Source of the DNA: a virus
Virus record (IMG/VR): IMGVR_UViG_3300023083_000005
Span: 1-56,731 of that record
Reading direction: 5' to 3' (one strand)
DNA: 56,731 bases
Part shown: positions 2,635 through 56,731 of the stretch, in pieces
Numbering within the stretch: position 1 is the stretch's first letter
How the letters are laid out: each line of letters begins with the position of its first letter
Program-made: the position numbers and the translations under genes
Notes under the pieces: generated by a model
What the model was told of the DNA's origin: nothing
The model's database searches: none
The model's input: only the letters and a program-made list of their open reading frames with translations

Positions 2635-2706
2635 TCTGAACTAGCTCAATGGCAGAGCAAGAAACTGTTAATTTCTCGGTTCGTGGTTCGAGTCCACGGT
2701 TCAGAG
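2635..2706 (+). tRNA. tRNA-Asn (anticodon GTT)
   Basis: Hand-folded cloverleaf: acceptor TCTGAAC/GTTCAGA, D stem GCTC/GAGC, anticodon stem AGAAA/TTTCT with loop CTGTTAA, T arm CGTGG-TTCGAGT-CCACG. Confidence 0.85.
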
Positions 2707-2772
2707 CGCGGAGTACCGCCCTTCGGGGTAAGGCACCAGCCTTGGTTCACGGCAAGGAGTAGTGGACTGTAT

Positions 2773-2845
<73 letters not shown>

Positions 2846-8074: not shown

Positions 8075-9193
8075 ATGACCAAGATTACCGATGAGGCGTA
8101 CTTCGAACGCTTCACGCCTCGCCAGAAAGAGGCCGCTGAGCTTCTGGACGGCTCGCTGAACGGTGACCGCACCGCCAAGCACAAGCTCGTGGAAGGTATC
8201 GCGACCAGCGATATCGCCGCAGCCCTCTCGCCCACGCTGAACTACCTGTCGCTCAAGAATTACGCGGCTCAGCCGAAGGTTTGGGATCAGTTCGCTGAGC
8301 GCAACGTGCTTGACAACTTCCTTGCCCAGCCGTACTACAACCTGTCGTTCGACGACCAGAGCAACATTGCTCCCGGTTACTCGGGTGACAACTTCATCCC
8401 GGGATCGCTCCCGACCGTGAAGGAGTACGCGCCGTACCCCACCATTAGCTTCTCCGCCTCGACTGCACAGTTGAAGCTGAAGAAGTCTGGTGAGGCTATC
8501 CAGTTCTCGTGGGAGTCGATCATCAACGACAACCAGCTTGGCATGCTTGAGCGCGTACCTACCGCGTTCGGTAAGCACGCTGCTGGCCGCGAGGACTCTG
8601 AGGCAACCAAGGGTCTTGTAACTCCCGCTGGCATCAACGCTGCGCTCTTCTCGGGCCAGACCGCGACCACGGGTGCGCTTACGCTCGCTGCTCTCCAGAA
8701 CGCTCTACAGGCTATCGCAGTCCAGACGTACAACGGAATCACCGTATCCCCGGCTTCCAGCTACGTGCTGATCGTGTCCCCTCAGAACGAACTGAACGCC
8801 CGTAACATTCTCGCCACGACCGAGGTTTCGACCGAGGTTACCTCTGGCGGCACCGTTACCCGCTTCACCCGCGACGAGACGATTGGCTCGCGTATCAAGC
8901 TGGTTGTCAACCCGTGGATCACCAAGATTGCACCCACCGCTGGTGCCGCTTGGTTCCTCGTTCCGGCCCCCGGCACGTCCGACCAGAACCCGCCCCTTCT
9001 GCTCAACTTCCTGCGTGGCTACGAGTCGCCTGAGATTTGGGTCAAGGACAACGCCAGCTACTTCCTCGCTGGTGGCAAGGTTCCTGAGCGTCGTGGTTCG
9101 TTCGACAACGACGACTACCAGCTTCGCACGCGCCACACGGCTACTGGTGGAGTTCTCCCCACCGCTGGCTACCTCGCATCGACTGGTGTCTAA
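8075..9193 (+). CDS. major capsid protein (HK97-fold, putative)
   Basis: 372 aa after protease/scaffold and followed by a strong terminator; size and synteny. Confidence 0.8.
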   Translation: MTKITDEAYFERFTPRQKEAAELLDGSLNGDRTAKHKLVEGIATSDIAAALSPTLNYLSLKNYAAQPKVWDQFAERNVLDNFLAQPYYNLSFDDQSNIAPGYSGDNFIPGSLPTVKEYAPYPTISFSASTAQLKLKKSGEAIQFSWESIINDNQLGMLERVPTAFGKHAAGREDSEATKGLVTPAGINAALFSGQTATTGALTLAALQNALQAIAVQTYNGITVSPASSYVLIVSPQNELNARNILATTEVSTEVTSGGTVTRFTRDETIGSRIKLVVNPWITKIAPTAGAAWFLVPAPGTSDQNPPLLLNFLRGYESPEIWVKDNASYFLAGGKVPERRGSFDNDDYQLRTRHTATGGVLPTAGYLASTGV

Positions 9194-32255: not shown

Positions 32256-32326
32256 GTGGACTGGCGGGAATCGAACCCACGTCCCTGCCCGACTTAGGGC
32301 CGCTCTTCCGATTGAGCTACAGTCCG
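32256..32326 (-). pseudogene. tRNA-like element / degenerate tRNA (no canonical anticodon arm)
   Basis: Acceptor (6 bp + C1:A72 mismatch), D arm GCTC-AATCGGAA-GAGC and T arm GTGGG-TTCGATT-CCCGC fold normally. The 21-nt central segment GGCCCTAAGTCGGGCAGGGAC gives only 4-bp stems with 6- or 9-nt loops. Confidence 0.55.
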
Positions 32327-41227: not shown

Positions 41228-42628
41228 TCAAGCCGAGACTTTTTGGAGGATGCTCAGGCCCGAGCGAACGAATGCGAATCCACCCAGTACGTCCTTATCG
41301 AAATCTTCGCTCATTTCGGGAGCCTTGAGCCAGCTTGACAGCGAACCGTCAGCCAGAACCTCGCCCACGTCACGGAAGTGGTTGACCCACGTCGCCTCGC
41401 CGTCATCCACCAGACCCGCGCCGGTGTTGCTCATTTCGCCCCACCAGTGAAGCATAGCGGCCAGCCCCTGAGGTGTCGTCTGTCCCTGATAGTCACCATC
41501 GTGGTCGAGGACATAAAACCGGTCGTCAAACGAACCACCCATGACCATAGAAGCGGAATCCTCGTCCACGGTTGACCCGGGAACGTCAGTGCGCCAGTTG
41601 TTGTTCTCATCGAACCAACCGTCAGGATCGTCACCGTATCCGTCGTCACCGGTCATCCACGCCTCGGCCCATGCGCGCTCAGCATCGGTGCGCGGGCTTG
41701 CCCATCCACCAGACGCGGGGACTGTACCCTCAGCGGGCACCGTAGCGGGCAGGGCGGGCTGTTCGGGCGTGAAGCCAGTTGTGGTGCTTGCGGCTGGCAG
41801 AGCCTTCTGAGTAGGCGTGTGGCTCGTCGCAGAAGCCTTGACTGCCGTCGTGCTGGTCGCGTTTCCGTGACCGCCCGACGTGGCGTTGCGCCATGTGGGG
41901 TTGTACCGACGCGCAGCACGATCCCAGTCTAGGTCTTCGTGCTGGAATGCCTTGGCATTGGTAATGGTCAGGTAGTCGCCGTCTTGCAGGTCAGCGAACG
42001 GCTTGGGCCATGTACCGAACCAGCGGATGCCGACACGCTTGAGTGCCTTGGCGAGAATGCTGTCGGTCGATGCGAAGACGAAAGACCCATCCTCAAGGCG
42101 TGCGATAGACACGGGGGAGTGGTTCAGGCGCGACAGGTGAATGGTGTTACCCGTCTGGGTGTCGAACCATGCGAGGGCAGCGTCACCACCGATCAGCGAG
42201 AATCCTTCGGTGCCGTACTCGGACAGCATTTCAGCCGCAACCGACGAGTCAACCTCGGGCAGTTGACTGCCATTTGTCAGGATTGCCCGCACGCTGTCAT
42301 GATTGAACAGAACGCCGTTGTGTACCAGCGTGATTCGCTTGTCGATGCTCGGCAGCGGGTGGTTGTTGTCGTTCACCTCAACCGGGCCGTGGGTTGCGAA
42401 ACGGGTGTGCATGATCACGCTGTCAGCCTTGCGGGGCAGCCCCTTTAGCTCAAGCTGTGAGCCGGGTACAGCCGCCTTGAACATGCCGGTTGCGCCGTTT
42501 CGGGTGGCGTAGGCGTATCCGCTGGCATGGGTGCCCCGAACCTCGCCCTCACTCAGCAGTGCATTGGCCAGTTCGCGTGCGTTGATCTTGGAGCCTTCTG
42601 CAAGGCTGAATCCGGTGATTGAACAGAT
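41228..42628 (-). CDS. class-II (Ntn) glutamine amidotransferase domain protein with about 220-aa C-terminal extension; apparent ATC start
   Basis: Nucleophile context (I)CSITGF, then MHTRFATHG...NNHP, HNGVLFN, EVDSSV. The ORF-track ATG (42484) would delete the catalytic Cys. AAGGAG lies 6 nt upstream of ATC-TGT. Confidence 0.7.
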   Translation of the reverse strand: MCSITGFSLAEGSKINARELANALLSEGEVRGTHASGYAYATRNGATGMFKAAVPGSQLELKGLPRKADSVIMHTRFATHGPVEVNDNNHPLPSIDKRITLVHNGVLFNHDSVRAILTNGSQLPEVDSSVAAEMLSEYGTEGFSLIGGDAALAWFDTQTGNTIHLSRLNHSPVSIARLEDGSFVFASTDSILAKALKRVGIRWFGTWPKPFADLQDGDYLTITNAKAFQHEDLDWDRAARRYNPTWRNATSGGHGNATSTTAVKASATSHTPTQKALPAASTTTGFTPEQPALPATVPAEGTVPASGGWASPRTDAERAWAEAWMTGDDGYGDDPDGWFDENNNWRTDVPGSTVDEDSASMVMGGSFDDRFYVLDHDGDYQGQTTPQGLAAMLHWWGEMSNTGAGLVDDGEATWVNHFRDVGEVLADGSLSSWLKAPEMSEDFDKDVLGGFAFVRSGLSILQKVSA

Positions 42629-42767
42629 GATATTCTCCTTTGTTAGTTCTGAAAGTGTTAGTGGGGCGCAAGGTCGTATTCCCTTGCGCCCCCGGTGGGT
42701 GCGAGTCTGACTCGCAATTAGCTAGTCCATTGCTCCACTAGAACCACCTCTTGCTGCGAGCTTACCC

Positions 42768-44243
42768 CTAGACTTCGCCCCCGGCAAGTACCAGTTCGGA
42801 CATACGGGCCGAGAAGTTGATCGGCTCGTTCTTCGTGAACATGGCCTCAATGTCCTCGTCAGTGATCGTTGACATGGAATCGTCAACGGTTTCCTTGCCG
42901 TACTTTACGAACAGCTTGTGCAGGTCTTCGAACGAGTTGACCCGGTTCCACTCGGCTTGCTTGACGTTGGCGCGGGCAACGTTCACCAATTCGCGGCAGA
43001 TGTATGCCCACCGGATCAGGTATTCGTAGTCGTAGACCGGGCCCATTGCGCGGAACTCGACGGTACCGTGACGGTTCAGGGCGTTCAGGTTCAGCGAGAG
43101 GTAACGGTCACCGCGCGAAACGTCGTGCTTGGTGGCTGCCGTCTTGCTGGAACGCAGGGTGTCACGAACCGCACCGAGCGAGCGAGGCATGCAGTAGGTG
43201 CGAACCTCGCGCTGGTAGCTCGACGCCAGAAGCGGCTCAATGGCACTGTAGCCGTACGTGAGCGAGCCAAGCTGGCGCGGGGTGAGGTCGTCCACGTCTA
43301 CGTGCACGTGAATGCCGCTCGTGTCGTTCTGCGGCTGCGTGGACAGGTGGGCCGTCAGGCTTTCGAGTCCCTTGGAGTGGAACGAGTGAAGAATGGGCGA
43401 AACGAATTCGCGGCAGTCTGCACTGCGGTCGCCGTCTTCGTACGCACTGCGCAGCGAGCCGTCAGCACGGGAGTCCCAGCCAGCGGGCTTGACCGCGCCA
43501 CGTGCGCCACCGGTTTCTACCTCAATGCCCCAGTTGCGGGAGGAACGGAGGCCGTGAGGCGCAATGGCGAACTTCTCCACGATGCGCTCAACGTTCTCGC
43601 TCTTTTTGTCCATGAGCTTCGTGAAGAATCCGTTGAAGTCGCCGGTACCCGAACGGACAGCCTTGCGCTTCTCGGCTTCCCGTGCCGCGTCAGCGGTCTT
43701 GGAGGCGCGGCGCATGGCTTCGAGCAGTTCTTTCTTGTAAGTGTCTTGCATGGCAATCAGGTAGTACAGCGCGTCAGCCAGCCCAGAGGCCCGCACGCGC
43801 CCGTCAGAGCGCACTGGAACGGTGATCGCGTGGCGCTCCATCACGGAGGTGTGAATGGCTCCCTTGGCAGTCGACGGAACAAGGTGGGCACCCTGTTTGA
43901 TGTAGACGATCCACGGGATGATGCCGATGTTCAGTTCGGCCAGCGCTTCCTTGGGTGACATGTAGTTGTCAACCAGTTCGCTCATGTAGACGCCACCGCG
44001 ACCCAGTTCGAGGCTGAAAGTGCCGTCGTCGGCCTTGTTCACCTTGACCTCGTTGGCGAAGTTGTAGCGGTCGTAGAAGTTCATGGTGGCGATAAACGCC
44101 CGGTACGCGCGTTCGATCTTGCGGGCATCCTTGCCAAGCTGAATGCTGGTCTTGCTGTTGAGCAGCGCCTTGGTAATGCCCCCCTCGTATGCGACACGGG
44201 CGTGCGCTTCGACCAGATTCTGAATGTTGCTCTCGTGACTCAC
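42768..44243 (-). CDS. amidoligase (glutamine-synthetase-like, Amidoligase_2 family)
   Basis: WGIEVETGGARG, ADGSL, EFVSPIL, SGIHVHVD, GTVEFRAM; GTG 44243 preceded by AAGGAGG (the track N-terminal extension was rejected). Confidence 0.75.
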   Translation of the reverse strand: MSHESNIQNLVEAHARVAYEGGITKALLNSKTSIQLGKDARKIERAYRAFIATMNFYDRYNFANEVKVNKADDGTFSLELGRGGVYMSELVDNYMSPKEALAELNIGIIPWIVYIKQGAHLVPSTAKGAIHTSVMERHAITVPVRSDGRVRASGLADALYYLIAMQDTYKKELLEAMRRASKTADAAREAEKRKAVRSGTGDFNGFFTKLMDKKSENVERIVEKFAIAPHGLRSSRNWGIEVETGGARGAVKPAGWDSRADGSLRSAYEDGDRSADCREFVSPILHSFHSKGLESLTAHLSTQPQNDTSGIHVHVDVDDLTPRQLGSLTYGYSAIEPLLASSYQREVRTYCMPRSLGAVRDTLRSSKTAATKHDVSRGDRYLSLNLNALNRHGTVEFRAMGPVYDYEYLIRWAYICRELVNVARANVKQAEWNRVNSFEDLHKLFVKYGKETVDDSMSTITDEDIEAMFTKNEPINFSARMSELVLAGGEV

Positions 44244-44391
44244 TGATACCTCCTTGGTAGATGATGTTGATTGGCTCTGGTTAGAGCTTAGTGCAGTTAT
44301 GCCCCACTGCGCAAGAGAATCTTGCAAATCAAGGGAAGAAATTCCGAGCCGGACTGCGGTTGACGCAACCCTCTCGGGAGTCCAAGGTTCT

Positions 44392-44502
44392 CTAGGCATT
44401 GCCGAACCCGATGTAAGCGCAGATGATCGGCACACACAGGGTGAAGATAGCGGCAAGAATGCCGTCTACACTGGACAGTTCCTTTTTGGCGCGCTCAAGC
44501 AC
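44392..44502 (-). CDS. small membrane peptide (36 aa)
   Basis: AGGAGG + 5 nt + GTG; VLERAKKELSSVDGILAAIFTLCVPIICAYIGFGNA. Confidence 0.45.
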   Translation of the reverse strand: MLERAKKELSSVDGILAAIFTLCVPIICAYIGFGNA

Positions 44503-44787: not shown

Positions 44788-45138
44788 TTACTCGCCCTCG
44801 AAAACCACGCGGTACGAGTCGGCCTTGGCGTTGGCCTTCTCGGTCAGCACGGCGGTGGTGCGCTTGTTGCCGTTGAACAGGAACCACACGTCGTAGCCCG
44901 CACCGGACTTGCGGTAGACGTTGTTGCCAATGGCAACCACGGCGTTCTTGCCGGTCGGCAGAACGATGGGGTCAACCAGCGGGGTAACGTCGAAGTCCGA
45001 CTTACGGAACGCGCTCGAACGGCTGGCACCGGTCGGGATCACGTAGTGATAGTCCGAGTAGAAACCACCCTCGCTGGTGCTGGTGCCCTCGATGGTGAGG
45101 GTGCTGTTCTTGGCGGTGAGAAGTACCTTGTTCGTCAT
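44788..45138 (-). CDS. hypothetical protein (116 aa), homologous to the C-terminal domain of 51328..51840
   Basis: GGAGG RBS; shared motif PIVLPTGKNA-V ... YRV-F-GE. Confidence 0.65.
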   Translation of the reverse strand: MTNKVLLTAKNSTLTIEGTSTSEGGFYSDYHYVIPTGASRSSAFRKSDFDVTPLVDPIVLPTGKNAVVAIGNNVYRKSGAGYDVWFLFNGNKRTTAVLTEKANAKADSYRVVFEGE

Positions 45139-45612: not shown

Positions 45613-46302
45613 TTACGCCCTCTTTCGCTTTCCGAATACCATCAAGCTACCACCGATGATCGAGAAAAGCAACACCAGAAAAATTGGCGGGAACATGTCA
45701 ATTCCAGTCTCGGCAAGGCGGTTCGGAACTACCTTAGCAGAAACCTGCTCGGTGACCATTTCGGGCACTGTCGGCTCGGCCACGGGAGGAACCACGACAG
45801 GCGGCTCAACTGCGGGCGGGACGACAACCGGGGGCTGCTCCACCGGGGGAACAACCACGGGCGGCTCTTCGACAGGCGGGACGACCACGGGCGGATCAGT
45901 GGGCGGAGCCACAACGGGTGGTTCTACGGGCGGCACGACAACCTCACAGGCTGGCGTAGTCCACACGTACCAGTGCTGCGCGATTCCGTTGTCTTCGCCA
46001 CCGTAGAGCAGACCATCCTCGATCAGCTTGGCAACCTCGGCAGTGGGGTACGAATCGGCTTGGTACTTGACCCCACACTTGAGGCCCGACGTGGGGTTGT
46101 CCCAGAACCCGAGATTTTCACCGGGCACCTGTGCTATGTAGTCCTGAGGTGTCAGGAAAACATCGTCGGTTGTGGAAGTCACCTCCCAGAGTACCGTGGT
46201 CAGGTCGGGCTGCTCGGTTGCCTGTGCCGGGCTAGCGCTAAACGCCACCCCAGCCAGTGCCATTGCCGCGAACGTAGTACTTGCTACTAGAGCTTTTTTC
46301 AT
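45613..46302 (-). CDS. secreted, sortase-anchored (LAETG) cell-wall surface protein with Pro-Val-rich stalk
   Basis: Signal peptide MKKALVASTTFAAMALAGVAFSASPAQA. PPVV/PPVE repeats are followed by LAETG, then the hydrophobic helix IDMFPPIFLVLLFSIIGGSLMVF and a KRKRA tail. Confidence 0.8.
   Translation of the reverse strand: MKKALVASTTFAAMALAGVAFSASPAQATEQPDLTTVLWEVTSTTDDVFLTPQDYIAQVPGENLGFWDNPTSGLKCGVKYQADSYPTAEVAKLIEDGLLYGGEDNGIAQHWYVWTTPACEVVVPPVEPPVVAPPTDPPVVVPPVEEPPVVVPPVEQPPVVVPPAVEPPVVVPPVAEPTVPEMVTEQVSAKVVPNRLAETGIDMFPPIFLVLLFSIIGGSLMVFGKRKRA
45775..45945 (-). repeat. Imperfect in-frame repeats encoding (V/E)PPVV units
   Basis: Seven or more PPV(V/E) units in the translation of 45613..46302. 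Confidence 0.7.
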
Positions 46303-46483
46303 TAGTTCCCCCTTGGGTTTCTATTAGTCGTTTGAGTAGTTCGTTTTTGTACTTCGCTGCGGCGTCCCACTTGGCACTGGCAAGGCTGTAATAGCCAGCA
46401 CGCTCATTGCGATACGCCTGTGTTGCCAACGCCCGATATCGACGCTTGAGCGTTCGTTGACTGAGAAGTGTCAAGTCAATCAT
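46238..46483 (-). CDS. hypothetical protein (81 aa)
   Basis: ORF track; the 3' end overlaps the LAETG gene start by 65 nt, so the true end or reality is uncertain. Confidence 0.45.
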   Translation of the reverse strand: MIDLTLLSQRTLKRRYRALATQAYRNERAGYYSLASAKWDAAAKYKNELLKRLIETQGGTNEKSSSSKYYVRGNGTGWGGV

Positions 46484-46769
46484 TGAGCACCCATTCGAGT
46501 GCTTCTCTGAATCCGAACTTATAGTTTGAGGCCCCCTCAGTGGCCCCTATCTTCGCCTCAATCTCTGCCCGCGTGCGCATGGGCTTCTGCTCTGGTTCGA
46601 TTTCGCCGGGGCGGAAACCGCCCACTGACCCCGAGTTGTCAAAGGCTACGATCAGGTAGCCGTCAACCGTATCACGGACGACTTCACCCGGGCCACCGTA
46701 GTTCTGGCTACCGTAGTGCATGTTGGTCGCCTTGAGTTGTACCCGGTCGCCAACTTTGTGGTCAGTCAT
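46476..46769 (-). CDS. GDRV-barrel family paralog P10 (97 aa)
   Basis: KVGDRVQLK...GEVVRD and C-terminal FREALEWVLND. Confidence 0.65.
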   Translation of the reverse strand: MTDHKVGDRVQLKATNMHYGSQNYGGPGEVVRDTVDGYLIVAFDNSGSVGGFRPGEIEPEQKPMRTRAEIEAKIGATEGASNYKFGFREALEWVLND

Positions 46770-47025
46770 CAATGAACCTCGTTTCTGTGAGCTTGCGAGC
46801 GGCTGCGCTCATTCGATCTGTGATCAACCTTACCTGCTCGTAGCTGGCAAGCGCAACCCTTTCGTCATATTCTTCTACGAAATAATTGTCGCTCTGGTAC
46901 GCCTCGTTGTATCCGTCAGCAATCGCCTGAGCGTGCGACTTGAACGGGGCAGAGTCCACGACTGACTCGTGATAGACGCCGTTCGTCTGAGTGTAGCGAC
47001 GTACCTTGACCAGCCATTTAGTCAT
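46762..47025 (-). CDS. hypothetical protein (87 aa)
   Basis: ATGA overlap with the upstream gene (track start 47037). Confidence 0.55.
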   Translation of the reverse strand: MTKWLVKVRRYTQTNGVYHESVVDSAPFKSHAQAIADGYNEAYQSDNYFVEEYDERVALASYEQVRLITDRMSAAARKLTETRFIDD

Positions 47026-47831
47026 GAGAGAATCCACTCCAACTCTTCGATAGCGAGCCGGGACAGGCCACTAGCCGGGGCTGAGCGGTACTGTTCAAGG
47101 CGTGCGTTCACCTCTTCCCGGGTACGGCGAATCGGCGGCAGGGCGGGCGCGGGCGGCGCTGGGGCGGTTGACGTTGTTGCGTCAATCAAGTCTAGGCTGG
47201 AAGGAAGCCAACGGTAAGACTCTGTACCCGAACCGCGAGAGGTGTCAAAAGCAACCCGTATAGTCGAGCGCCCGCTGACGGCACTATATTCTGACAAAAC
47301 ATCGTTCACAGTCCCTTCCGCACCAACCCAAGAGCGGCTTCGTTGAGTAGATTGGTTTACCCGCACCCGGTCACCCACGCGGAATTCACCGGGCGCCCGA
47401 ACCTCGACAGGTGTTGGCGTCGGTGTGTCAATCACGGACAGGCTGCGTTCGTAGAAACGCCATTCTGCGCCGTTGTCCATGCTGATGACCCACAATTTTT
47501 CAGTGCTGGATTCATAGTGGACTCGAACGAGAGTGCCAATCTCTCCACGGTAGCCTCTGCTGGCTGTCTCGTTGATCTGAACGCGATCACCCTCGCGCAT
47601 CTGTCGTACTAGCGGGAGTGCGGCGGGTGGGGTGGGGTTGGGGGTTGCCGGTTCAGTGATCAGGTCAAGGCGGTATTGGAAATACGTGCCGTTGCGGTTG
47701 TCGCCCCAGTCAACCGTGACCAAGTAATCAGGGTCACCGCTTTCGACGTGCCGCACAACACCTTCAAGCCCTCGATGCCCAATGTCAATTCTGTCATTGC
47801 CGCGAACTCGGTCGCCTACGCTGTACGGCAT
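47022..47831 (-). CDS. GDRV-barrel family paralog P9 (269 aa, three modules)
   Basis: SVGDRVRGN, EGDRVQIN, RVGDRVRVN; C-terminus LAIEELEWILS. Confidence 0.7.
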   Translation of the reverse strand: MPYSVGDRVRGNDRIDIGHRGLEGVVRHVESGDPDYLVTVDWGDNRNGTYFQYRLDLITEPATPNPTPPAALPLVRQMREGDRVQINETASRGYRGEIGTLVRVHYESSTEKLWVISMDNGAEWRFYERSLSVIDTPTPTPVEVRAPGEFRVGDRVRVNQSTQRSRSWVGAEGTVNDVLSEYSAVSGRSTIRVAFDTSRGSGTESYRWLPSSLDLIDATTSTAPAPPAPALPPIRRTREEVNARLEQYRSAPASGLSRLAIEELEWILS

Positions 47832-48247
47832 CAGTCGTCATCCTCGTCTTCGTCGTAATACTCGTCGGGTTCTGATGCCTCGGTGTCAAGATCGTCAGGC
47901 GTGGCCTCTGCGCGGCGCAGTGCGCCGATAACCCATTGAAGCTCTTCGATGATGACCAGAACAGCCACCGTCTTGTTCGGCAACGCCTCATACATGGCAA
48001 GGCGTGCCTCGACCTCGCTGGGCGTCTTGGGTTCAACAGGGCCAGCCATTTCAATCTGGCTGACGTACACGCCTCGATCAAATGGGCCGTCATCACCCGA
48101 AACGTAATCGTCACGGTTGGGTGTGTCGCGGTTGTAGAACATGACGCGCGTGACAGTGAATTCCTCCCCGATGTGAGAGTGCAAAGAAGTTTGGCGGCTC
48201 GAATTCACAACGCGAACTCGATCACCTATCGAAAAAGCATGAGGCAT
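47831..48247 (-). CDS. GDRV-barrel family paralog P8 (138 aa) with poly-acidic tail
   Basis: SIGDRVRVV; VIIEELQWVIGAL; tail EPDEYYDEDEDDD. Confidence 0.7.
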   Translation of the reverse strand: MPHAFSIGDRVRVVNSSRQTSLHSHIGEEFTVTRVMFYNRDTPNRDDYVSGDDGPFDRGVYVSQIEMAGPVEPKTPSEVEARLAMYEALPNKTVAVLVIIEELQWVIGALRRAEATPDDLDTEASEPDEYYDEDEDDD

Positions 48248-48250
48248 TGA

Positions 48251-48337
48251 CTAACTCCTGTCATTCATGTAGTCGCCAATGGTGGCGAATACGAGTAGTA
48301 AGGGAAGGGTTACGGTGGCGATCAGTAAGACGATCAC
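48251..48337 (-). CDS. possible small membrane peptide (28 aa)
   Basis: GTGA overlap; VIVLLIATVTLPLLLVFATIGDYMNDRS. Confidence 0.35.
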   Translation of the reverse strand: MIVLLIATVTLPLLLVFATIGDYMNDRS

Positions 48338-48462
48338 TTGCCGCTCACCCACTGTGAGAACGCAACCGCGAAGATCAGGCTGCTGTAGCTAAAAGCCACG
48401 ACGCTGAGCAGAATCACGCCCACAACGATGTAGCCGAAAACTGACTTTACCCTGTCAATCAC
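48334..48462 (-). CDS. possible small membrane protein (42 aa)
   Basis: AAGGAAG RBS + GTG; VIDRVKSVFGYIVVGVILLSVVAFSYSSLIFAVAF... Confidence 0.4.
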   Translation of the reverse strand: MIDRVKSVFGYIVVGVILLSVVAFSYSSLIFAVAFSQWVSGK

Positions 48463-48502
48463 TGTGTCTTCCTTGGTTGGTTGATACTGCTAGCTTAATC
48501 GC

Positions 48503-49156
48503 TCAGCCGAGCAGGGTCAATACCCAATTCAATTCTTCTACCACGACTTTCTTGGCCAGCGTGTCAGGCGCGGCGGCATAGGCGTCCCGCTTCTCAGCTA
48601 CCAGCAACTTGAGTTGCGAAGGCGTGGCTGGTTCGACGTTGACGAACTCAAAGCTCTCGAAACTGGCGTGCCAGTCAAAGCCGTTGGGCGACTCGACGTA
48701 CATGACTCCCGGGTCGTCCCAGCTTGTCGTGTCCATAGGGATAACCCGCGTCACCGTGTGTTCAGTGCCGACCGCTGACCCGCCCGTGTCAAGCGTGATG
48801 CGGATGCGGTCGCCCACCTGTGCGTCAGTCGTCGCGCGAGGGCGGTACGGCTCAACTGTGGGCGGCTGGGTGGCGATCACGTCACCGGCGAAGGTGACAA
48901 CATCGTGGTTTTCTTCGGTGTCGTCTTCTGACAGCAGAGCGTCAAGTTCAGCGTCAAGGACTGCCGTTGATTCCGGGTTGTCAACCACATAGCACGTGTT
49001 GTGAGCGTACCAATGGTCGCCAGTGAAATTGTCCCGATCTGCACCCCGGTAGTGTACTCCATCGGTTAGCACCTCAGTGACAGTACCATAACCTCCCGCT
49101 ACGGTTGCCCCCTGAAAAGTGATAATCCTGATTCTGTCTCCCACTACTGCGGTCAC
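48503..49156 (-). CDS. GDRV-barrel family paralog P7 (217 aa, two modules)
   Basis: VVGDRIRII and QVGDRIRIT; C-terminus VVVEELNWVLTLLG. Confidence 0.7.
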   Translation of the reverse strand: MTAVVGDRIRIITFQGATVAGGYGTVTEVLTDGVHYRGADRDNFTGDHWYAHNTCYVVDNPESTAVLDAELDALLSEDDTEENHDVVTFAGDVIATQPPTVEPYRPRATTDAQVGDRIRITLDTGGSAVGTEHTVTRVIPMDTTSWDDPGVMYVESPNGFDWHASFESFEFVNVEPATPSQLKLLVAEKRDAYAAAPDTLAKKVVVEELNWVLTLLG

Positions 49157-49476
49157 AGTGCAAGCACCCCCTCAAGTTCCTCGATCACGGCTTTCACGGC
49201 GACAGTGGGATTCTCCACTGACTTGTAAGCGTCAATGCGCTTCTGGATTTTGGCGCGCAAGGTGCGTGCGTCACCGCGTTTTGGCTTGGCGGGCTTGACC
49301 AACTCCATTGCGTCGTTGTAGTAGTTGTTGGTGTAGTCGTTACCGTCAAGCTGTACCGTGCTGACCCCGCCCCTCTCGAATGCGTTGTAATTATCGTTGG
49401 GCCTGACGACGACACCCTCACGGCCCATAGCGCCACCGTCAGTCATGCGGACTCTGTCTCCTGCTGCGAATGTCAT
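49153..49476 (-). CDS. GDRV-barrel family paralog P6 (107 aa)
   Basis: MTFAAGDRVRM; C-terminus ENPTVAVKAVIEELEGVLAL; ATGA overlaps. Confidence 0.75.
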   Translation of the reverse strand: MTFAAGDRVRMTDGGAMGREGVVVRPNDNYNAFERGGVSTVQLDGNDYTNNYYNDAMELVKPAKPKRGDARTLRAKIQKRIDAYKSVENPTVAVKAVIEELEGVLAL

Positions 49477-49811
49477 AGTGACAATACCCCTTCCAACTCT
49501 TCGATTACTGCCTTGACTGCGACTGTCGGATTCTCAATCGCCTTGTACGCTTCGATGCGCTTGGCGATCTTACCCCGCAGCGAGCGGGCATCGTTCTTGG
49601 GCGGCTTAGCGGGCTCAATCAGAACCAACTGATTTGTGTAAAAACGGTTTGTTTCAACGCGGTTGCCGTTCAAGTTATCGTCGAAACGAATCTCTGTCAC
49701 GGGGCGGCTGTAGTCTGGAACGAGTGGATCAACCACCACACCTGTGCGGTTCTCCCAAGAGCTTTCGTAGCCCTGTCGTACGGTAACCCGATCACCGATT
49801 GCAAACGTCAT
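49473..49811 (-). CDS. GDRV-barrel family paralog P5 (112 aa)
   Basis: MTFAIGDRVTV; C-terminus ENPTVAVKAVIEELEGVLSL. Confidence 0.75.
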   Translation of the reverse strand: MTFAIGDRVTVRQGYESSWENRTGVVVDPLVPDYSRPVTEIRFDDNLNGNRVETNRFYTNQLVLIEPAKPPKNDARSLRGKIAKRIEAYKAIENPTVAVKAVIEELEGVLSL

Positions 49812-50200
49812 AGCGACAACGCCCCTTCCAGTTCTTCGATGATCGACCGGACGGCCACGGTGGGGTTCTCGATTGACTTGTACGCGTCAAGGCTCTTGGT
49901 CAGCTTGGCTCGCAGGTTGCGCCGATCCTTGCGGTTGTCGGCGGGCGTACCTTCGATTATGCGCGGAATGAGCGCAATGTCGTCGTACGGAACGCGGGGA
50001 AAATGCGTAAAGTCACCACCGTCCACAGTTGTGCCACCCGTGTACACCGAAACGTTGCCACTGAACGTGTCAACGCTGTAGATGAGTCCAATCTGTCCGA
50101 TTGCTGCCGTCTGTCCGTAATCGGTTCTGTGCGGCGCAAGGAAGCGGATGGGCGCACCTGACATGAATCCCTCAGGCCGCTGCGTGCGTGTTCTTGGCAT
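49808..50200 (-). CDS. family paralog P4 (130 aa)
   Basis: AAGGAGG RBS before ATG 50200; C-terminus ENPTVAVRSIIEELEGALSL. Confidence 0.7.
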   Translation of the reverse strand: MPRTRTQRPEGFMSGAPIRFLAPHRTDYGQTAAIGQIGLIYSVDTFSGNVSVYTGGTTVDGGDFTHFPRVPYDDIALIPRIIEGTPADNRKDRRNLRAKLTKSLDAYKSIENPTVAVRSIIEELEGALSL

Positions 50201-50203
50201 TGT

Positions 50204-50449
50204 CTAATCCTCCTTGGTTTGTTCTGTTAGGTAAACCCTACCGGCTTTTTCTATCAGGCGGAAGCCCTTAGCCCTAAGTTTTTCCTCCCACGTGTCGTAC
50301 TGATGCCACGTCATGTGACCTTTGGAATAGTTCCGCTGAATCTCACGGATGGGAATACCAGCCTCACCCGCCGTGACCAGCTTGCGCAACATCGTGCGCT
50401 GTAGCTCGGTGTGACAGGCTTTGTGTGCGCGCGGAATGTTGACTGTCAT
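50204..50449 (-). CDS. hypothetical protein, winged-helix-like (81 aa)
   Basis: ORF track; LRKLVTAGEAGIPIREIQRNY. Confidence 0.55.
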   Translation of the reverse strand: MTVNIPRAHKACHTELQRTMLRKLVTAGEAGIPIREIQRNYSKGHMTWHQYDTWEEKLRAKGFRLIEKAGRVYLTEQTKED

Positions 50450-50646
50450 TTGTCAACCGTCGTAAAGTCGCATTCGATCTGGCCATTCATGCCGTTGTAG
50501 TACACGCGACCACCCGACGATTCGCAGACCTGAGAGAACTTCGCCTCTTCCTTGATCTTGTCCAGCGGTTCACCGCACGCTGAAAGAGTGCCCAGCATGA
50601 GTGCCGCCACGATGATTGCTGTTAGTTTCCTCACTGTCCATCCCAT
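50446..50646 (-). CDS. lipoprotein (66 aa)
   Basis: Signal peptide with lipobox LGTLSAC. Confidence 0.65.
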   Translation of the reverse strand: MGWTVRKLTAIIVAALMLGTLSACGEPLDKIKEEAKFSQVCESSGGRVYYNGMNGQIECDFTTVDK

Positions 50647-50804
50647 CCGCTAATTGTCACTCCGCTGTCAAGAATCACGTCTATCTTGACACTGCCCCTG
50701 ACCGGCTGGCGAACCGCCATCACCGTGCCGCGCTGCGCCTCAATGTTGTTGTCCTCGTCGGCTGCAATGTAGGTCACGCGTGCGCCTACTACGATTTTGC
50801 TCAC
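50631..50804 (-). CDS. single-module barrel protein P3 (57 aa)
   Basis: GTG at GTGA overlap; VSKIVVGARVTYIAADEDNNIEAQRGTVMAV...; same frame as track ORF 50631..51017. Confidence 0.45.
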   Translation of the reverse strand: MSKIVVGARVTYIAADEDNNIEAQRGTVMAVRQPVRGSVKIDVILDSGVTISGWDGQ

Positions 50805-50965
50805 TTGTTGATCACGTCCGAAATGACGGTGCCGAATTCGATGGGCATCACCTTGGCATGGTACCCCAGATTGACAGCGTGGCGCAGTGCCGCTATCTCG
50901 GTCTCGTGGATCGACTCGACAGAGTAGCCGTAGTCCTGCGTGGCAACGATCCAAACAGTTTTCAT
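50801..50965 (-). CDS. hypothetical protein (54 aa)
   Basis: Hand translation MKTVWIVATQDYGYSVESIHETEIAALRHAVNLGYHAKV...; ATGA overlap. Confidence 0.45.
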   Translation of the reverse strand: MKTVWIVATQDYGYSVESIHETEIAALRHAVNLGYHAKVMPIEFGTVISDVINK

Positions 50966-51108
50966 CACCCCACCACCTTGGCTTGCATGGTGAACGGGTT
51001 ACCCGCGCGAATCGCAATGTCCACGATCTTGGCTGCAGTTTTTGCGTCGTAAACAGTGTAGGTGCGGTCTCCGCGAGTGGGGTAGTGAATCGTCAGCGTG
51101 TATTTCAT
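50965..51108 (-). CDS. hypothetical protein (47 aa)
   Basis: GAGGGAG RBS; MKYTLTIHYPTRGDRTYTVYDAKTAAKIVDIAIRAGNPF... Confidence 0.45.
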   Translation of the reverse strand: MKYTLTIHYPTRGDRTYTVYDAKTAAKIVDIAIRAGNPFTMQAKVVG

Positions 51109-51327
51109 GGTGACTCCCTCGTGTCAATGGTTGATAATCGAACCCCGCCCACCGGTCGCAATGCCAGTGGACGAGACAAAACAATCAAACACAGATTCAA
51201 TATTCAATATAGGTGTTGGCTACGAATGGGCTTCGTTTGCCTGAGTGAGTATCTACATCGGTACCACCTCCCTTGCTTGTGTTCTCAGTTTAGTGGAGCG
51301 TGCGGGGTTTGTCTACCCTTTTGGGGA

Positions 51328-51840
51328 TTATTCTCCCGGGAAGATCACGCGGTATGTGTCGCGTCTACGTTCCGCTTCTTCCTTGAGGGAAGAGGGCCAC
51401 AGGAAATTGCCATTACCGAAACGCCACTTGTTACCGTCGAAATGGTAGGCAGTAGCGCCGACTTCGACCAGCGCGTTTTTCCCGGTCGGCAGCACAATCG
51501 GCTCGGGTAGCAGTTCGTATGTCCACTCTTGCGTGTTGTAGCTGCCCGTGGTGGTTCCACCCTCGAACGCGACAGTCATCCACGCCGATTGAACAGTGCG
51601 CACAGTGCCCACGACGACCGACTCGCCTAGCGTCAGCTTGACGCGCTTACCGGCCAGTGACACTGGAGCGTCAACGATCTTGGTGAGGTAGTCAGGGCGG
51701 TACACCCAGCTTCCGCCCGGGGCGTGGTTATCCCGATGCACGACAAGACTTTCACCAGCGTAACCGGTGACCGTACCCTCGATGCCGCAGAAAACCCCAC
51801 GGTTGACGATCACCCGATCACCCTTGAGTAGCACGCTCAT
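51328..51840 (-). CDS. GDRV-barrel family paralog P2 (170 aa, two modules + domain shared with 44788..45138)
   Basis: LKGDRVIVN...GTVTG; LAGKRVKLT...GTVRTV; C-terminus PIVLPTGKNALV...YRVIFPGE. Confidence 0.7.
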   Translation of the reverse strand: MSVLLKGDRVIVNRGVFCGIEGTVTGYAGESLVVHRDNHAPGGSWVYRPDYLTKIVDAPVSLAGKRVKLTLGESVVVGTVRTVQSAWMTVAFEGGTTTGSYNTQEWTYELLPEPIVLPTGKNALVEVGATAYHFDGNKWRFGNGNFLWPSSLKEEAERRRDTYRVIFPGE

Positions 51841-52583
51841 GCCTTCACGCCCTCGGAAAGAATGGTGTACTTCGACCCGTGCAGGAAACTCTCGGAACCG
51901 TACGTGTTGCCCGTTTTGCTTGACACGAAAGTGTCATCGGCGGTTTTCACGAAAGAAAATCGGGTGCCTTTGACGACAGCCCCGATTCCCAGACCACGCA
52001 GCTTTTCGGGAAACGTGGGTTCACGATGGGCTTCGTCGTACTCGCGGATTGCCCGCTGTGCGTCGAAAACGGCGATTTCCGCCCGGGCGTAGGCGCGCTG
52101 TGCCTCGTTCTGCTGGTGCAGCCTGTCGGCGCGCTTGAGGGTGGCCTCTTCTGCCGCCTTGACCAGTTCGGCCCGCTCATCGACGGGGACGAATACCCGG
52201 GTCAGTTCGCTCACCATGTAGCTGGCCTGTTTTCCGTCGTCGAAACGAACATCTGCGGCACTGCCAGCGTTGTTGACGTACTGGATCGTCACCTCTTCAC
52301 CCTTGCGCCCGACGTTGGCGCGAATGCCGTAGCCGCTCTTGTTCACGTTCACGACGGCACGGTCACCCTTTTTGAGCGGTTCGTCACACGGGCTGGGCTT
52401 GACCGGAAGGTGCGACAGGCTGCGAACGTTGTACTCGTGCTGCGCGCCGTTGTCGAATCGGACGGTGGCCCAATTGCTGCCAGTCGTGGCGGTCACGTCA
52501 CCCTCATGACCGCTCAGAATGCTCTGCGGGCGCGAAACGATAATGCGGTCGCCTACTTCAAACGGGTTCATAAACGGGTTCAT
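51837..52583 (-). CDS. GDRV-barrel family paralog P1 (248 aa, two modules + helical/other C-terminal region)
   Basis: AGGAGGAAAAACAG before ATG 52583 (track start 52661 rejected); EVGDRIIVS and KKGDRAVVN. Confidence 0.7.
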   Translation of the reverse strand: MNPFMNPFEVGDRIIVSRPQSILSGHEGDVTATTGSNWATVRFDNGAQHEYNVRSLSHLPVKPSPCDEPLKKGDRAVVNVNKSGYGIRANVGRKGEEVTIQYVNNAGSAADVRFDDGKQASYMVSELTRVFVPVDERAELVKAAEEATLKRADRLHQQNEAQRAYARAEIAVFDAQRAIREYDEAHREPTFPEKLRGLGIGAVVKGTRFSFVKTADDTFVSSKTGNTYGSESFLHGSKYTILSEGVKA

Positions 52584-52670
52584 CTGTTTTTCCTCCTGTT
52601 GGTTTGTTGACGCTGGTGTGTCATAGCTTGCTGCGAATACTTCGAACCAGTTGGGGTTCATGTCTCTACC

Positions 52671-54446: not shown

Positions 54447-55376
54447 CTAGCTGACGGTGGTCAGTACCGATTCGCAGTTTTCACACACCAACTGCTGTGC
54501 GTTGTACCACTTGATCGGCACGGTAACGGTCAGTTGCTTGCCGTTGTCGTCGTAGCACTCACAGCCGACCTTGACGGTGGTCTTTTCTGCCGCTGCCTTG
54601 GCCTTGGCGGGCTTGCGGTGTGTGGTGAGGGATGCCGCCAGCAGTTCGAGAATGTCGGCGTAGTCCACCTGTGCCTGAGTGGTCAGGCCGGTTGTGACGT
54701 GCCCGATGGACGAGTTTTCCTCGACGATCAGGCCCATTGACTCAGCAGTGTCACGGAACTTGCGGTTGTGGAAACGTCCCTGACGGCTCGTGTCTTTGAT
54801 GTTCTGGGCGTGGGCGCTGGCGTGGGCGGCTTCGTGGATCAGGGTTACCAGTGTCGGCTCAGCGCCCCGGGCGAGCGATTCACTCGACATGAGGATTTCG
54901 TGACGGCCCGAACCGGCGTGCTCGCCTGTCGTGTCAGCCCAGCTACCCGGCTCGAAGTGGCCGTGCTTTTTGCCGGAGCCTGAGGCAATGATGACGGCGA
55001 GCGCGGTGGGCACGTTGGGGTTCAACTCGCGGATACGGCCCATTGCCGCGTCAAGGGCGGTCAGGATGGAGACCGTGGGGGTGTGGGCGGTCTCGACGGT
55101 GGGCGCTTCGTAGTAGGTCTCTTCCTGCATCTGCGCGAGAATGTCGTCCCCCGAAATTGACAACTCAGCGTCAACCGGCGTCTCAGTCACGGTGAACGGG
55201 ATGCCGGGGTACTCGACCGGTGCGGGAGCGTCAGCAGCGGCATAGACGGTCGAAGAGGCAACCCCGGCTTGTGTGCGCTGCATCGCGGCGAACTCGCGAG
55301 CACCCTTGCGCGCGGTGTGGTTCATGCGGAACTCGGGGGAGTTGTCCGTGTAGGTGGTAACGGTAATCCAGTTCAT
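54447..55376 (-). CDS. SprT-like HExxH zinc metalloprotease domain protein with C-terminal zinc ribbon
   Basis: TLIHEAAHASAH followed by GRFHNRKFRDTAESMGL; C-terminus CECYDD...CENCES. Confidence 0.6.
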   Translation of the reverse strand: MNWITVTTYTDNSPEFRMNHTARKGAREFAAMQRTQAGVASSTVYAAADAPAPVEYPGIPFTVTETPVDAELSISGDDILAQMQEETYYEAPTVETAHTPTVSILTALDAAMGRIRELNPNVPTALAVIIASGSGKKHGHFEPGSWADTTGEHAGSGRHEILMSSESLARGAEPTLVTLIHEAAHASAHAQNIKDTSRQGRFHNRKFRDTAESMGLIVEENSSIGHVTTGLTTQAQVDYADILELLAASLTTHRKPAKAKAAAEKTTVKVGCECYDDNGKQLTVTVPIKWYNAQQLVCENCESVLTTVS

Positions 55377-56604: not shown

Positions 56605-56731
56605 GAGGGGCCCGGGGCGCACCTCCATGCGTCTCTCGCCTTTATTTCGGTGTCAGGTGACCCCATATGTAAAATTTTGGCCCGATTTTTTACACGTTTG
56701 GCCCATGTGTAAAATTTTTTGCCATTTTTTC
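56605..56731. repeat. Terminal direct repeat, copy 2 (identical to 1..127)
   Basis: Exact repeat of window start. Confidence 0.95.

Follow-up and report, generated by a model that had tools for sequence, protein, structure and literature searches.

A tandem array of predicted SH3-like barrel proteins, seven of them sharing a C-terminal helical hairpin, in an actinophage genome

Genes for small SH3-like barrel proteins rank among the most common unexplained genes of phages, and several described families resemble the proteins considered here. The KOW domains of Spt5/NusG and tandem Tudor/Agenet domains are five-stranded barrels arranged in tandem like beads on a string. SH3_15/DUF1918 repeat proteins consist of tandem barrels starting with (F)KVGDRV, several of them with C-terminal helices, and occur on phage-like contigs. 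In KapB/OapB, an SH3- or KOW-like barrel is followed by helices. PsaE (photosystem I subunit IV) provides the best single-domain structural match. In SspB-type proteolytic adaptors, a flexible linker connects a small barrel head to a short, conserved element at the C-terminus that binds a partner. Protein binding is a natural role of such SH3-like barrels. The subject of this report is an array of ten minus-strand genes, g1 to g10, at positions 46476-52583 of the virus record IMGVR_UViG_3300023083_000005, which was analysed over positions 1-56,731 (56,731 nucleotides, the window). By sequence comparison, eight of the ten genes (g1, g2, g5-g10) contain homologous GDR(V/I/A) modules, twelve altogether, and the seven distal genes end in a hairpin tail.

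All ten open reading frames (ORFs), which a preliminary description made from the sequence alone had read as one family, were found at the positions listed in Table 1, and their starts are plausible. Neighbouring genes overlap by four bases (g1/g2, g4/g5, g5/g6, g6/g7) or by one base (g8/g9), suggesting that they are produced together. The relatives used for comparison were L002, a 56.2-kb NCBI contig, L003, an 8.7-kb Logan contig, the more distant L004, and L005 and L006. In all-vs-all BLASTP comparisons, g4 to g9 were paralogous over their whole length (E-values, E, of 1e-4 to 1e-32). The g10 product joined them weakly but collinearly, g1 was linked to g9 through the modules, and g2 to g1. 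For a non-circular test of the modules, a hidden Markov model (HMM) was seeded with tail-adjacent barrels only and run against 1,715 six-frame ORFs of the window and two relatives. Modules 1 and 2 of g9 (E 5e-5 and 1e-5), module 1 of g1 (5e-5), module 1 of g2 (3e-4) and, in iteration 2, module 1 of g7 (2e-7) were detected while still absent from the model. The best match outside the arrays had an E of about 0.2, and no false hits were obtained. Comparison of ortholog alignments with the seed barrels by hhalign yielded 96% and 94% for the first modules of g1 and g2, respectively, and 72% for the second module of g1, the last reaching 98% against all 28 modules. Of 15 instances of GDR[VI] among the six-frame ORFs of the window, 11 lie in frame within the array; that GDRV is a chance motif was ruled out by the profile searches with their six-frame controls. 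A module had been proposed for every gene, about 15 in all. The twelve with sequence support are exactly those quoted at the time, and a 13th barrel, residues 63-110 of g2, is mainly structure-supported, since it forms a barrel in an AlphaFold model (hhalign P 1.3e-4). No such support was obtained for g3 (hhalign score 13.4, equalled by two of 30 column shuffles) or for the head of g4 (hhalign 0.4-0.9% against barrel profiles); membership of g4 is through its tail only.

The AlphaFold model of g5, built on an 11-sequence family alignment, reached a predicted local distance difference test value (pLDDT) of 80.7 and displays five strands, a poorly ordered proline-rich linker and helices at residues 72-90 and 97-111. 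Since the pLDDT of the linker is 64 and the predicted template modelling score 0.54, the hairpin appears to be independent of the barrel and not fixed on it. The g2 model (pLDDT 84.5) contains three domains, a barrel, a second barrel and a small mixed C-terminal domain. In these models, which superpose on structures of KOW, Tudor or PsaE, the module folds into a five-stranded barrel of the SH3-like KOW/Tudor/PsaE type, GDR(V/I) marking the first strand; the earlier suggestion of a KOW/SH3/Tudor-type barrel was right at the level of the fold. Foldseek searches with g5 matched the barrel part only, namely PsaE (template modelling score 0.76 over 65 residues, 24-31% identity), Spt5 KOW, the KOW-type ribosomal proteins L14e/L27e, and PWWP. 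With g2, the tandem KOW domains of Spt5 (E 5e-7) and tandem Tudor/Agenet domains (FXR2, SETDB1, 53BP1) were detected. Among the Foldseek matches, Spt5 KOW2-3 had an E of 1.5e-5. KapB/OapB were matched by g5 near full length at E 3e-3 to 5e-3, and the hits in BFVD were uncharacterised small phage proteins, several from actinophages. The barrel profile searched against PDB sequences likewise retrieved PsaE (3e-4), along with eL21, uL24 and Spt5. Nine of the twelve modules are acidic, with isoelectric points of 4.2-5.8.

No protein of the array reached the curated thresholds of Pfam, NCBIfam or PADLOC, and none of the ten had a match to the PADLOC defence models at E<=0.1. The PHROGs matches concerned families without assigned function, g1 to phrog_7955 over one barrel (E 4.9e-6) and others at 2e-4 to 0.09. 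The gathering threshold of KOW (PF00467, 22.3 bits) was missed even by the best protein, g6 (16.8 bits, E 0.006), and four of the 28 modules matched Pfam KOW at E<1 (best 1.1e-4). For SH3_15 (PF18346, 24 bits), g9 scored 12.3 bits (E 0.21) and one of the 28 modules matched at E 0.18; for DUF1918 (PF08940, 24 bits), four of the 28 matched below threshold (best E 0.0049). An NGN domain of the NusG/Spt5 family was not found in Pfam or NCBIfam, where only a 15-bit partial UpxY match over a barrel was seen, and there was no match to Pfam KapB. A barrel-plus-tail profile returned only nine hits in a word-indexed search over 5.8 billion proteins, and an exhaustive HMMER search with this profile gave 519 hits in 1.84 billion (1.84e9) representative proteins. 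Hits from outside the clade cover only profile positions of about 3-70, the barrel, and positions beyond about 105 are covered by clade members only. Most of the outside hits are multi-repeat proteins from eukaryotes and phage-like metagenomic contigs, with 3-14 tandem copies starting (F)KVGDRV and Pfam matches to SH3_15 (Mind bomb SH3 repeat), DUF1918 and the NHase-beta C-terminal domain; in several, the barrels are followed by C-terminal helices. Because the profile of the family itself retrieves true SH3_15 proteins, the array barrel and the SH3_15/DUF1918 proteins are likely to be distantly related. These searches place the barrel, in a divergent form, within a very broad superfamily, and the tail is private to the clade.

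The tail HMM matched exactly g4 to g10 in the window (E 8e-14 to 2e-22), the seven distal genes for which a common C-terminus had been proposed. The element is real and helical, but it is a helix-turn-helix hairpin of about 40 residues and not the single helix that had been described, and it follows a proline-rich linker joining it to the last barrel. The part common to all tails is mainly the last eight residues, I-E-E-L-x-W-V-L. Helix 1 is basic in g4-g6 and g9, and in helix 2 hydrophobic residues occupy over half of the positions, following an a/d/e pattern. A type VII secretion-like signal (YxxxD/E) behind helix 1 was considered and dropped, as AYKxIE is present in g4-g6 and absent from g7-g10. 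Searches of Pfam and PDB sequences with the tail profile gave no match, only scattered hits (best PDB E 0.93, best Pfam E 0.04). Seven tails are encoded in the window, six each in L002 and L003, and one, of the g10 type, in L004; L005, L006 and the initial 16 kb of Clavibacter phage CN1A yielded none. On average, tails within the window are 39% identical and heads 26%. The notion of a constant tail on variable heads applies strongly within g4-g6, where tails are 63-78% and heads 19-42% identical, and far less to the other paralogs, with 27-43% for tails and 12-35% for heads.

All array genes are under purifying selection (ratio of nonsynonymous to synonymous substitution rates, dN/dS, 0.2-0.56), and synonymous sites are saturated between phages and among the paralogs g4, g5 and g6. 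Because the tails of g5 and g6 differ at a proportion of 0.86 of synonymous sites (pS) and 0.145 of nonsynonymous sites (pN), the tail is kept by selection and not by gene conversion. Gene conversion as the source of tail similarity was also rejected on the basis of DNA repeats: the only one is 27 nt at 67-78% identity, and no long repeats were found. Between the window and L002 (g4, g6, g7, g8, g9), pN was 0.03-0.19 for tails and 0.33-0.52 for heads, in g6 0.033 and 0.40, respectively. The tail value was two- to fourfold below that of the head in g4, g6, g8 and g9, but not in g10. Purifying selection is stronger on tails than on heads, and heads turn over between relatives, as the earlier term variable heads implied. 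The array is kept in the same order in L002, L003 and, more distantly, L004, and gene and module numbers differ among them in line with the copy-number variation that had been anticipated. A single gene in L002 and L003 corresponds to g5 and g6, g5 having no separate ortholog there. Three barrels are present in g9 of the window and two in relatives; g1 has two both in the window and in L002 and a single one in L003, and L004 carries three g1-type paralogs. Modules are not strictly orthologous, since module 1 of g1 in the window matches best to module 2 of g1 in L002, and the first module of g7 is different in all three phages. The small cytoplasmic proteins of the array stem from an old tandem expansion that is restricted to this lineage, and their genes lie in a leftward, non-structural block.

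The genome is siphovirus-like, with structural genes on the plus strand at about 3-27 kb and replication and accessory genes on the minus strand, between about 28 kb and the right end. Bases 1-127 are an exact repeat of 56605-56731 (100% identity), which looks like a k=127 circular-assembly overlap, so that the window probably represents the complete genome, about 56.6 kb in length. The nearest GenBank relative of this actinophage, which is from a rare lineage, is Clavibacter phage CN1A (56.8 kb), with a terminase 60% identical to that of the window. Judged by this kinship and by the LAxTG sortase motif, Microbacteriaceae are candidate hosts. By position, the block containing the array matches hypothetical genes at the left end of CN1A, upstream of helicase, primase and polymerase genes, and from this correspondence and the strand the array genes would be early. 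At the DNA level, megablast with the array region gave no match to GenBank phages. Similarly, tblastn of g5, g9 and g1 against 50,697 GenBank phages gave no match, for g9 and g1 even at E<=1, and a scan of IMG/VR and GTDB genomes with the g2 alignment revealed no relatives. Literature searches on CN1A, DUF1918, SEF0032 and tandem SH3-like phage genes yielded nothing useful.

The reading tentatively preferred, with a probability of roughly 35%, is that the barrels bind proteins while the tails pair with themselves or with sister tails, which would yield multivalent complexes able to bind host proteins at an early stage of infection. The barrels, mostly acidic and fast-evolving, would be the protein-binding heads, with modules gained, lost and swapped. 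The hairpin is taken as an association module because 40 residues are unlikely to be stable alone, helix 2 is hydrophobic and the linker to the barrel is flexible; too small and too hydrophobic to stand by itself, it could pair as a four-helix bundle, and paired tails might then assemble the barrels into complexes. Several observations weigh against this. Outside g4-g6 the paralog tails are just 27-43% identical, so that one common interface is not evident. Conserved polar residues of the tail, a nearly invariant Glu and the Trp of g7-g10, could mark a site for an external partner, and KOW-type and Tudor-type barrels bind RNA in some proteins. A close alternative, possible though unlikely, is the model of the preliminary description, in which a single partner, from host or phage, would be bound by all tails and the barrels would bring different cargos to it. 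The array would then be a set of adaptors or decoys analogous to SspB-type adaptors, perhaps with a role in host takeover or anti-defence. A shared site is favoured by the near-identical tails of g4-g6 on dissimilar heads and by the core, which with its nearly invariant Glu and invariant Leu recurs in all seven paralogs and their orthologs. The flexible proline-rich linker ahead of the tail and the slower evolution of tails compared to heads fit as well. Tail classes differ markedly, however, and each is conserved among orthologs, so that paralog-specific pairing is slightly favoured over a single site.

It is also conceivable, but rather unlikely, that the genes specify functionally unrelated small accessory proteins sharing ancestry, the tail being a mere structural cap without a shared role in interaction. 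Small SH3-like barrel proteins lacking an assigned function are indeed common in phages, but six to seven tail-bearing copies are retained in the same order in three phages with saturated synonymous sites, the tail is the most constrained segment, and the model leaves it unpacked on the barrel. Direct modulation of transcription or translation by barrels that bind RNA or DNA like KOW, OapB or ProQ-type Tudor domains appears improbable. Foldseek matches to Spt5 KOW, ribosomal KOW proteins and OapB, the weak Pfam KOW matches of single modules and the basic helix 1 in g4-g6 and g9 are compatible with such an activity. Binding of nucleic acids is nevertheless unlikely for most barrels, because nine of the twelve are acidic and g7 and g8 have net charges of about -20, and no protein reaches any Pfam threshold. 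Somewhat speculatively, the hairpin could be a shared coupling device by which seven differently headed SH3-like proteins assemble combinatorially or on one hub, a rather doubtful proposal at present. If true, the array would be a modular, evolvable toolkit capturing several host proteins at once, and new specificities would arise via barrel swapping or duplication.

Table 1. Features of the array and its surroundings; barrels, tails and functional names are predictions (aa, amino acids)
Feature	Position	Strand	Size (aa)	Characteristics
g1	51837..52583	-	248	Barrels aa 9-59 (52407..52559) and aa 73-130 (52194..52367), from HMM iteration and hhalign; orthologs in L002 and L003, three paralogs in L004
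Alternative g1 start	52584..52661	-		Start at 52661, 26 codons earlier
g2	51328..51840	-	170	Barrel 1 aa 6-55, barrel 2 aa 63-110; C-domain aa 113-170 (PIVLPTGKNA...YRVIFPGE); no hairpin tail
Tiny ORFs	50801..51108	-	47, 55	Between g2 and g3
g3	50631..50804	-	57	Putative member; VVGARVTY...; conserved in L002 and L003; dN/dS 0.24
Lipoprotein	50446..50646	-		LSAC lipobox, read from sequence; no Pfam hit; syntenic in L002 and L003; not of the family
81-aa protein	50204..50449	-	81	Syntenic in L002 and L003; not of the family
g4	49808..50200	-	130	Class-I hairpin tail aa 85-130 (49811..49948; tail HMM 1.7e-20)
g5	49473..49811	-	112	Barrel aa 2-66, PAKPPK linker, class-I tail 49476..49613 (HMM 1e-21)
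g6	49153..49476	-	107	One barrel, class-I tail 49156..49293; BLASTP to g5 8e-32
g7	48503..49156	-	217	Barrels aa 2-50 and 111-172, tail 48512..48628; net charge -22
Two tiny hydrophobic ORFs	48251..48462	-	33, 42	Between g7 and g8; syntenic small membrane ORFs in L002 and L003
g8	47831..48247	-	138	One barrel, tail 47924..48034; net charge -19; orthologs P0004, P0007
g8 acidic extension	47831..47923	-		Beyond the tail; DEYYDEDEDDD (L002 DTEDEDEDED)
g9	47022..47831	-	269	Barrels aa 3-58, 81-134 and 149-216, Pro-rich linker, tail 47025..47156
g10	46476..46769	-	97	One barrel, divergent tail FREALEWVLND
Surface protein	45613..46302	-		Sortase-substrate-like: signal peptide, PPVV repeats, LAETG, membrane segment, KRKRA end
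Additional member	44788..45138	-	116	C-terminal ~60 aa (PIVLPTGKNA...YRVVFEGE) correspond to the g2 C-domain (HMM 7e-32); conserved in L002 (13827..14165)
Amidoligase_2 and class-II glutamine amidotransferase	41228..44456	-	562, 418	Adjacent genes; pair also kept in L002 and L004
HExxH-type protein	54447..55376	-	309	Sub-threshold SprT-like match; similar gene in L005
tRNA-like gene	32256..32326	-		ARAGORN; two-base anticodon loop call
tRNA-Asn, tRNA-Trp	2635..2845	+		ARAGORN; near left end

An AGGAGG sequence is located upstream of the ATG of g1 at 52583. Since the protein-level conservation with L002 that would speak for the earlier start ('STNQQEEK') coincides with this ribosome-binding site, the shorter form is preferred. 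Behind its barrels, g1 continues with an extended helical stretch and a C-terminal domain whose last residues are ILSEGVKA; it has no hairpin tail. The last 58 residues of g2 constitute a domain common to the additional member at 44788..45138, which lies beyond the range first described, and to relatives as far as L005, being kept in L002, L004 and L005. That the C-terminus of g1 is the same domain is only suggestive (hhalign P 0.003, probability 12%). The g2 C-domain is thus a second shuffled module, and a single type of barrel is combined in this region with alternative C-terminal modules, at least two or three in number. The acidic extension of g8 is strongly so in the orthologs as well, and g10 is the sole tail-bearing type also found in the distant L004 (5956..6306; tail HMM 1.9e-15, compared to 1e-15 in the window).

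Among the interleaved genes, the lipoprotein and the two membrane peptides, like the LAETG protein behind the array, read as described before, but the label winged helix-turn-helix-like for the 81-aa protein found no support in Pfam. In every relative, even the distant L004, the gene of a surface protein comes immediately after the g10-type gene (L002 12681..13358, L003 7762..8496, L004 6303..7415). These secreted, proline-rich proteins are membrane-anchored and bear LAETG, LASTG or LAYTG as the sortase-type motif. For a phage that looks lytic, a protein anchored to the cell wall is unusual. Between g2 and g3, where the window has tiny ORFs, L002 carries at 8239..8516 two adjacent ORFs of 44-47 aa that are paralog-like (MKYTLTIHY...), possibly another small duplicated family. 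The neighbouring amidoligase and amidotransferase genes may specify a pathway for the modification of a small molecule or macromolecule.

With 13 barrels in one operon, and with gain, loss and swapping between relatives, the array is an unusually clean natural experiment. Its private, strongly constrained tail points to a shared interaction; a partner of the tail, if found, would offer the first functional handle on small SH3-like barrel proteins of phages and might show how actinophages target host machinery. Compared to the known systems, the array proteins differ from Spt5/NusG KOW and Tudor proteins in having no NGN hit, in remaining below the Pfam thresholds and in being mostly acidic, and those families are without the C-terminal hairpin. 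None of the SH3_15/DUF1918 repeat proteins has this tail, and the array proteins stay below both thresholds. The biology of PsaE is unrelated, and the resemblance is one of fold only. In KapB/OapB the two parts are not superposed together (root-mean-square deviation 14-16 Å) and sequence similarity is absent. No homology was found to SspB-type adaptors, and the array tail is a hairpin of 40 residues instead of a short peptide. The array is a well-defined family with no assigned function, not a new mechanism; its barrel is of a known kind, and what is new is the combination with the tail and the tandem expansion.

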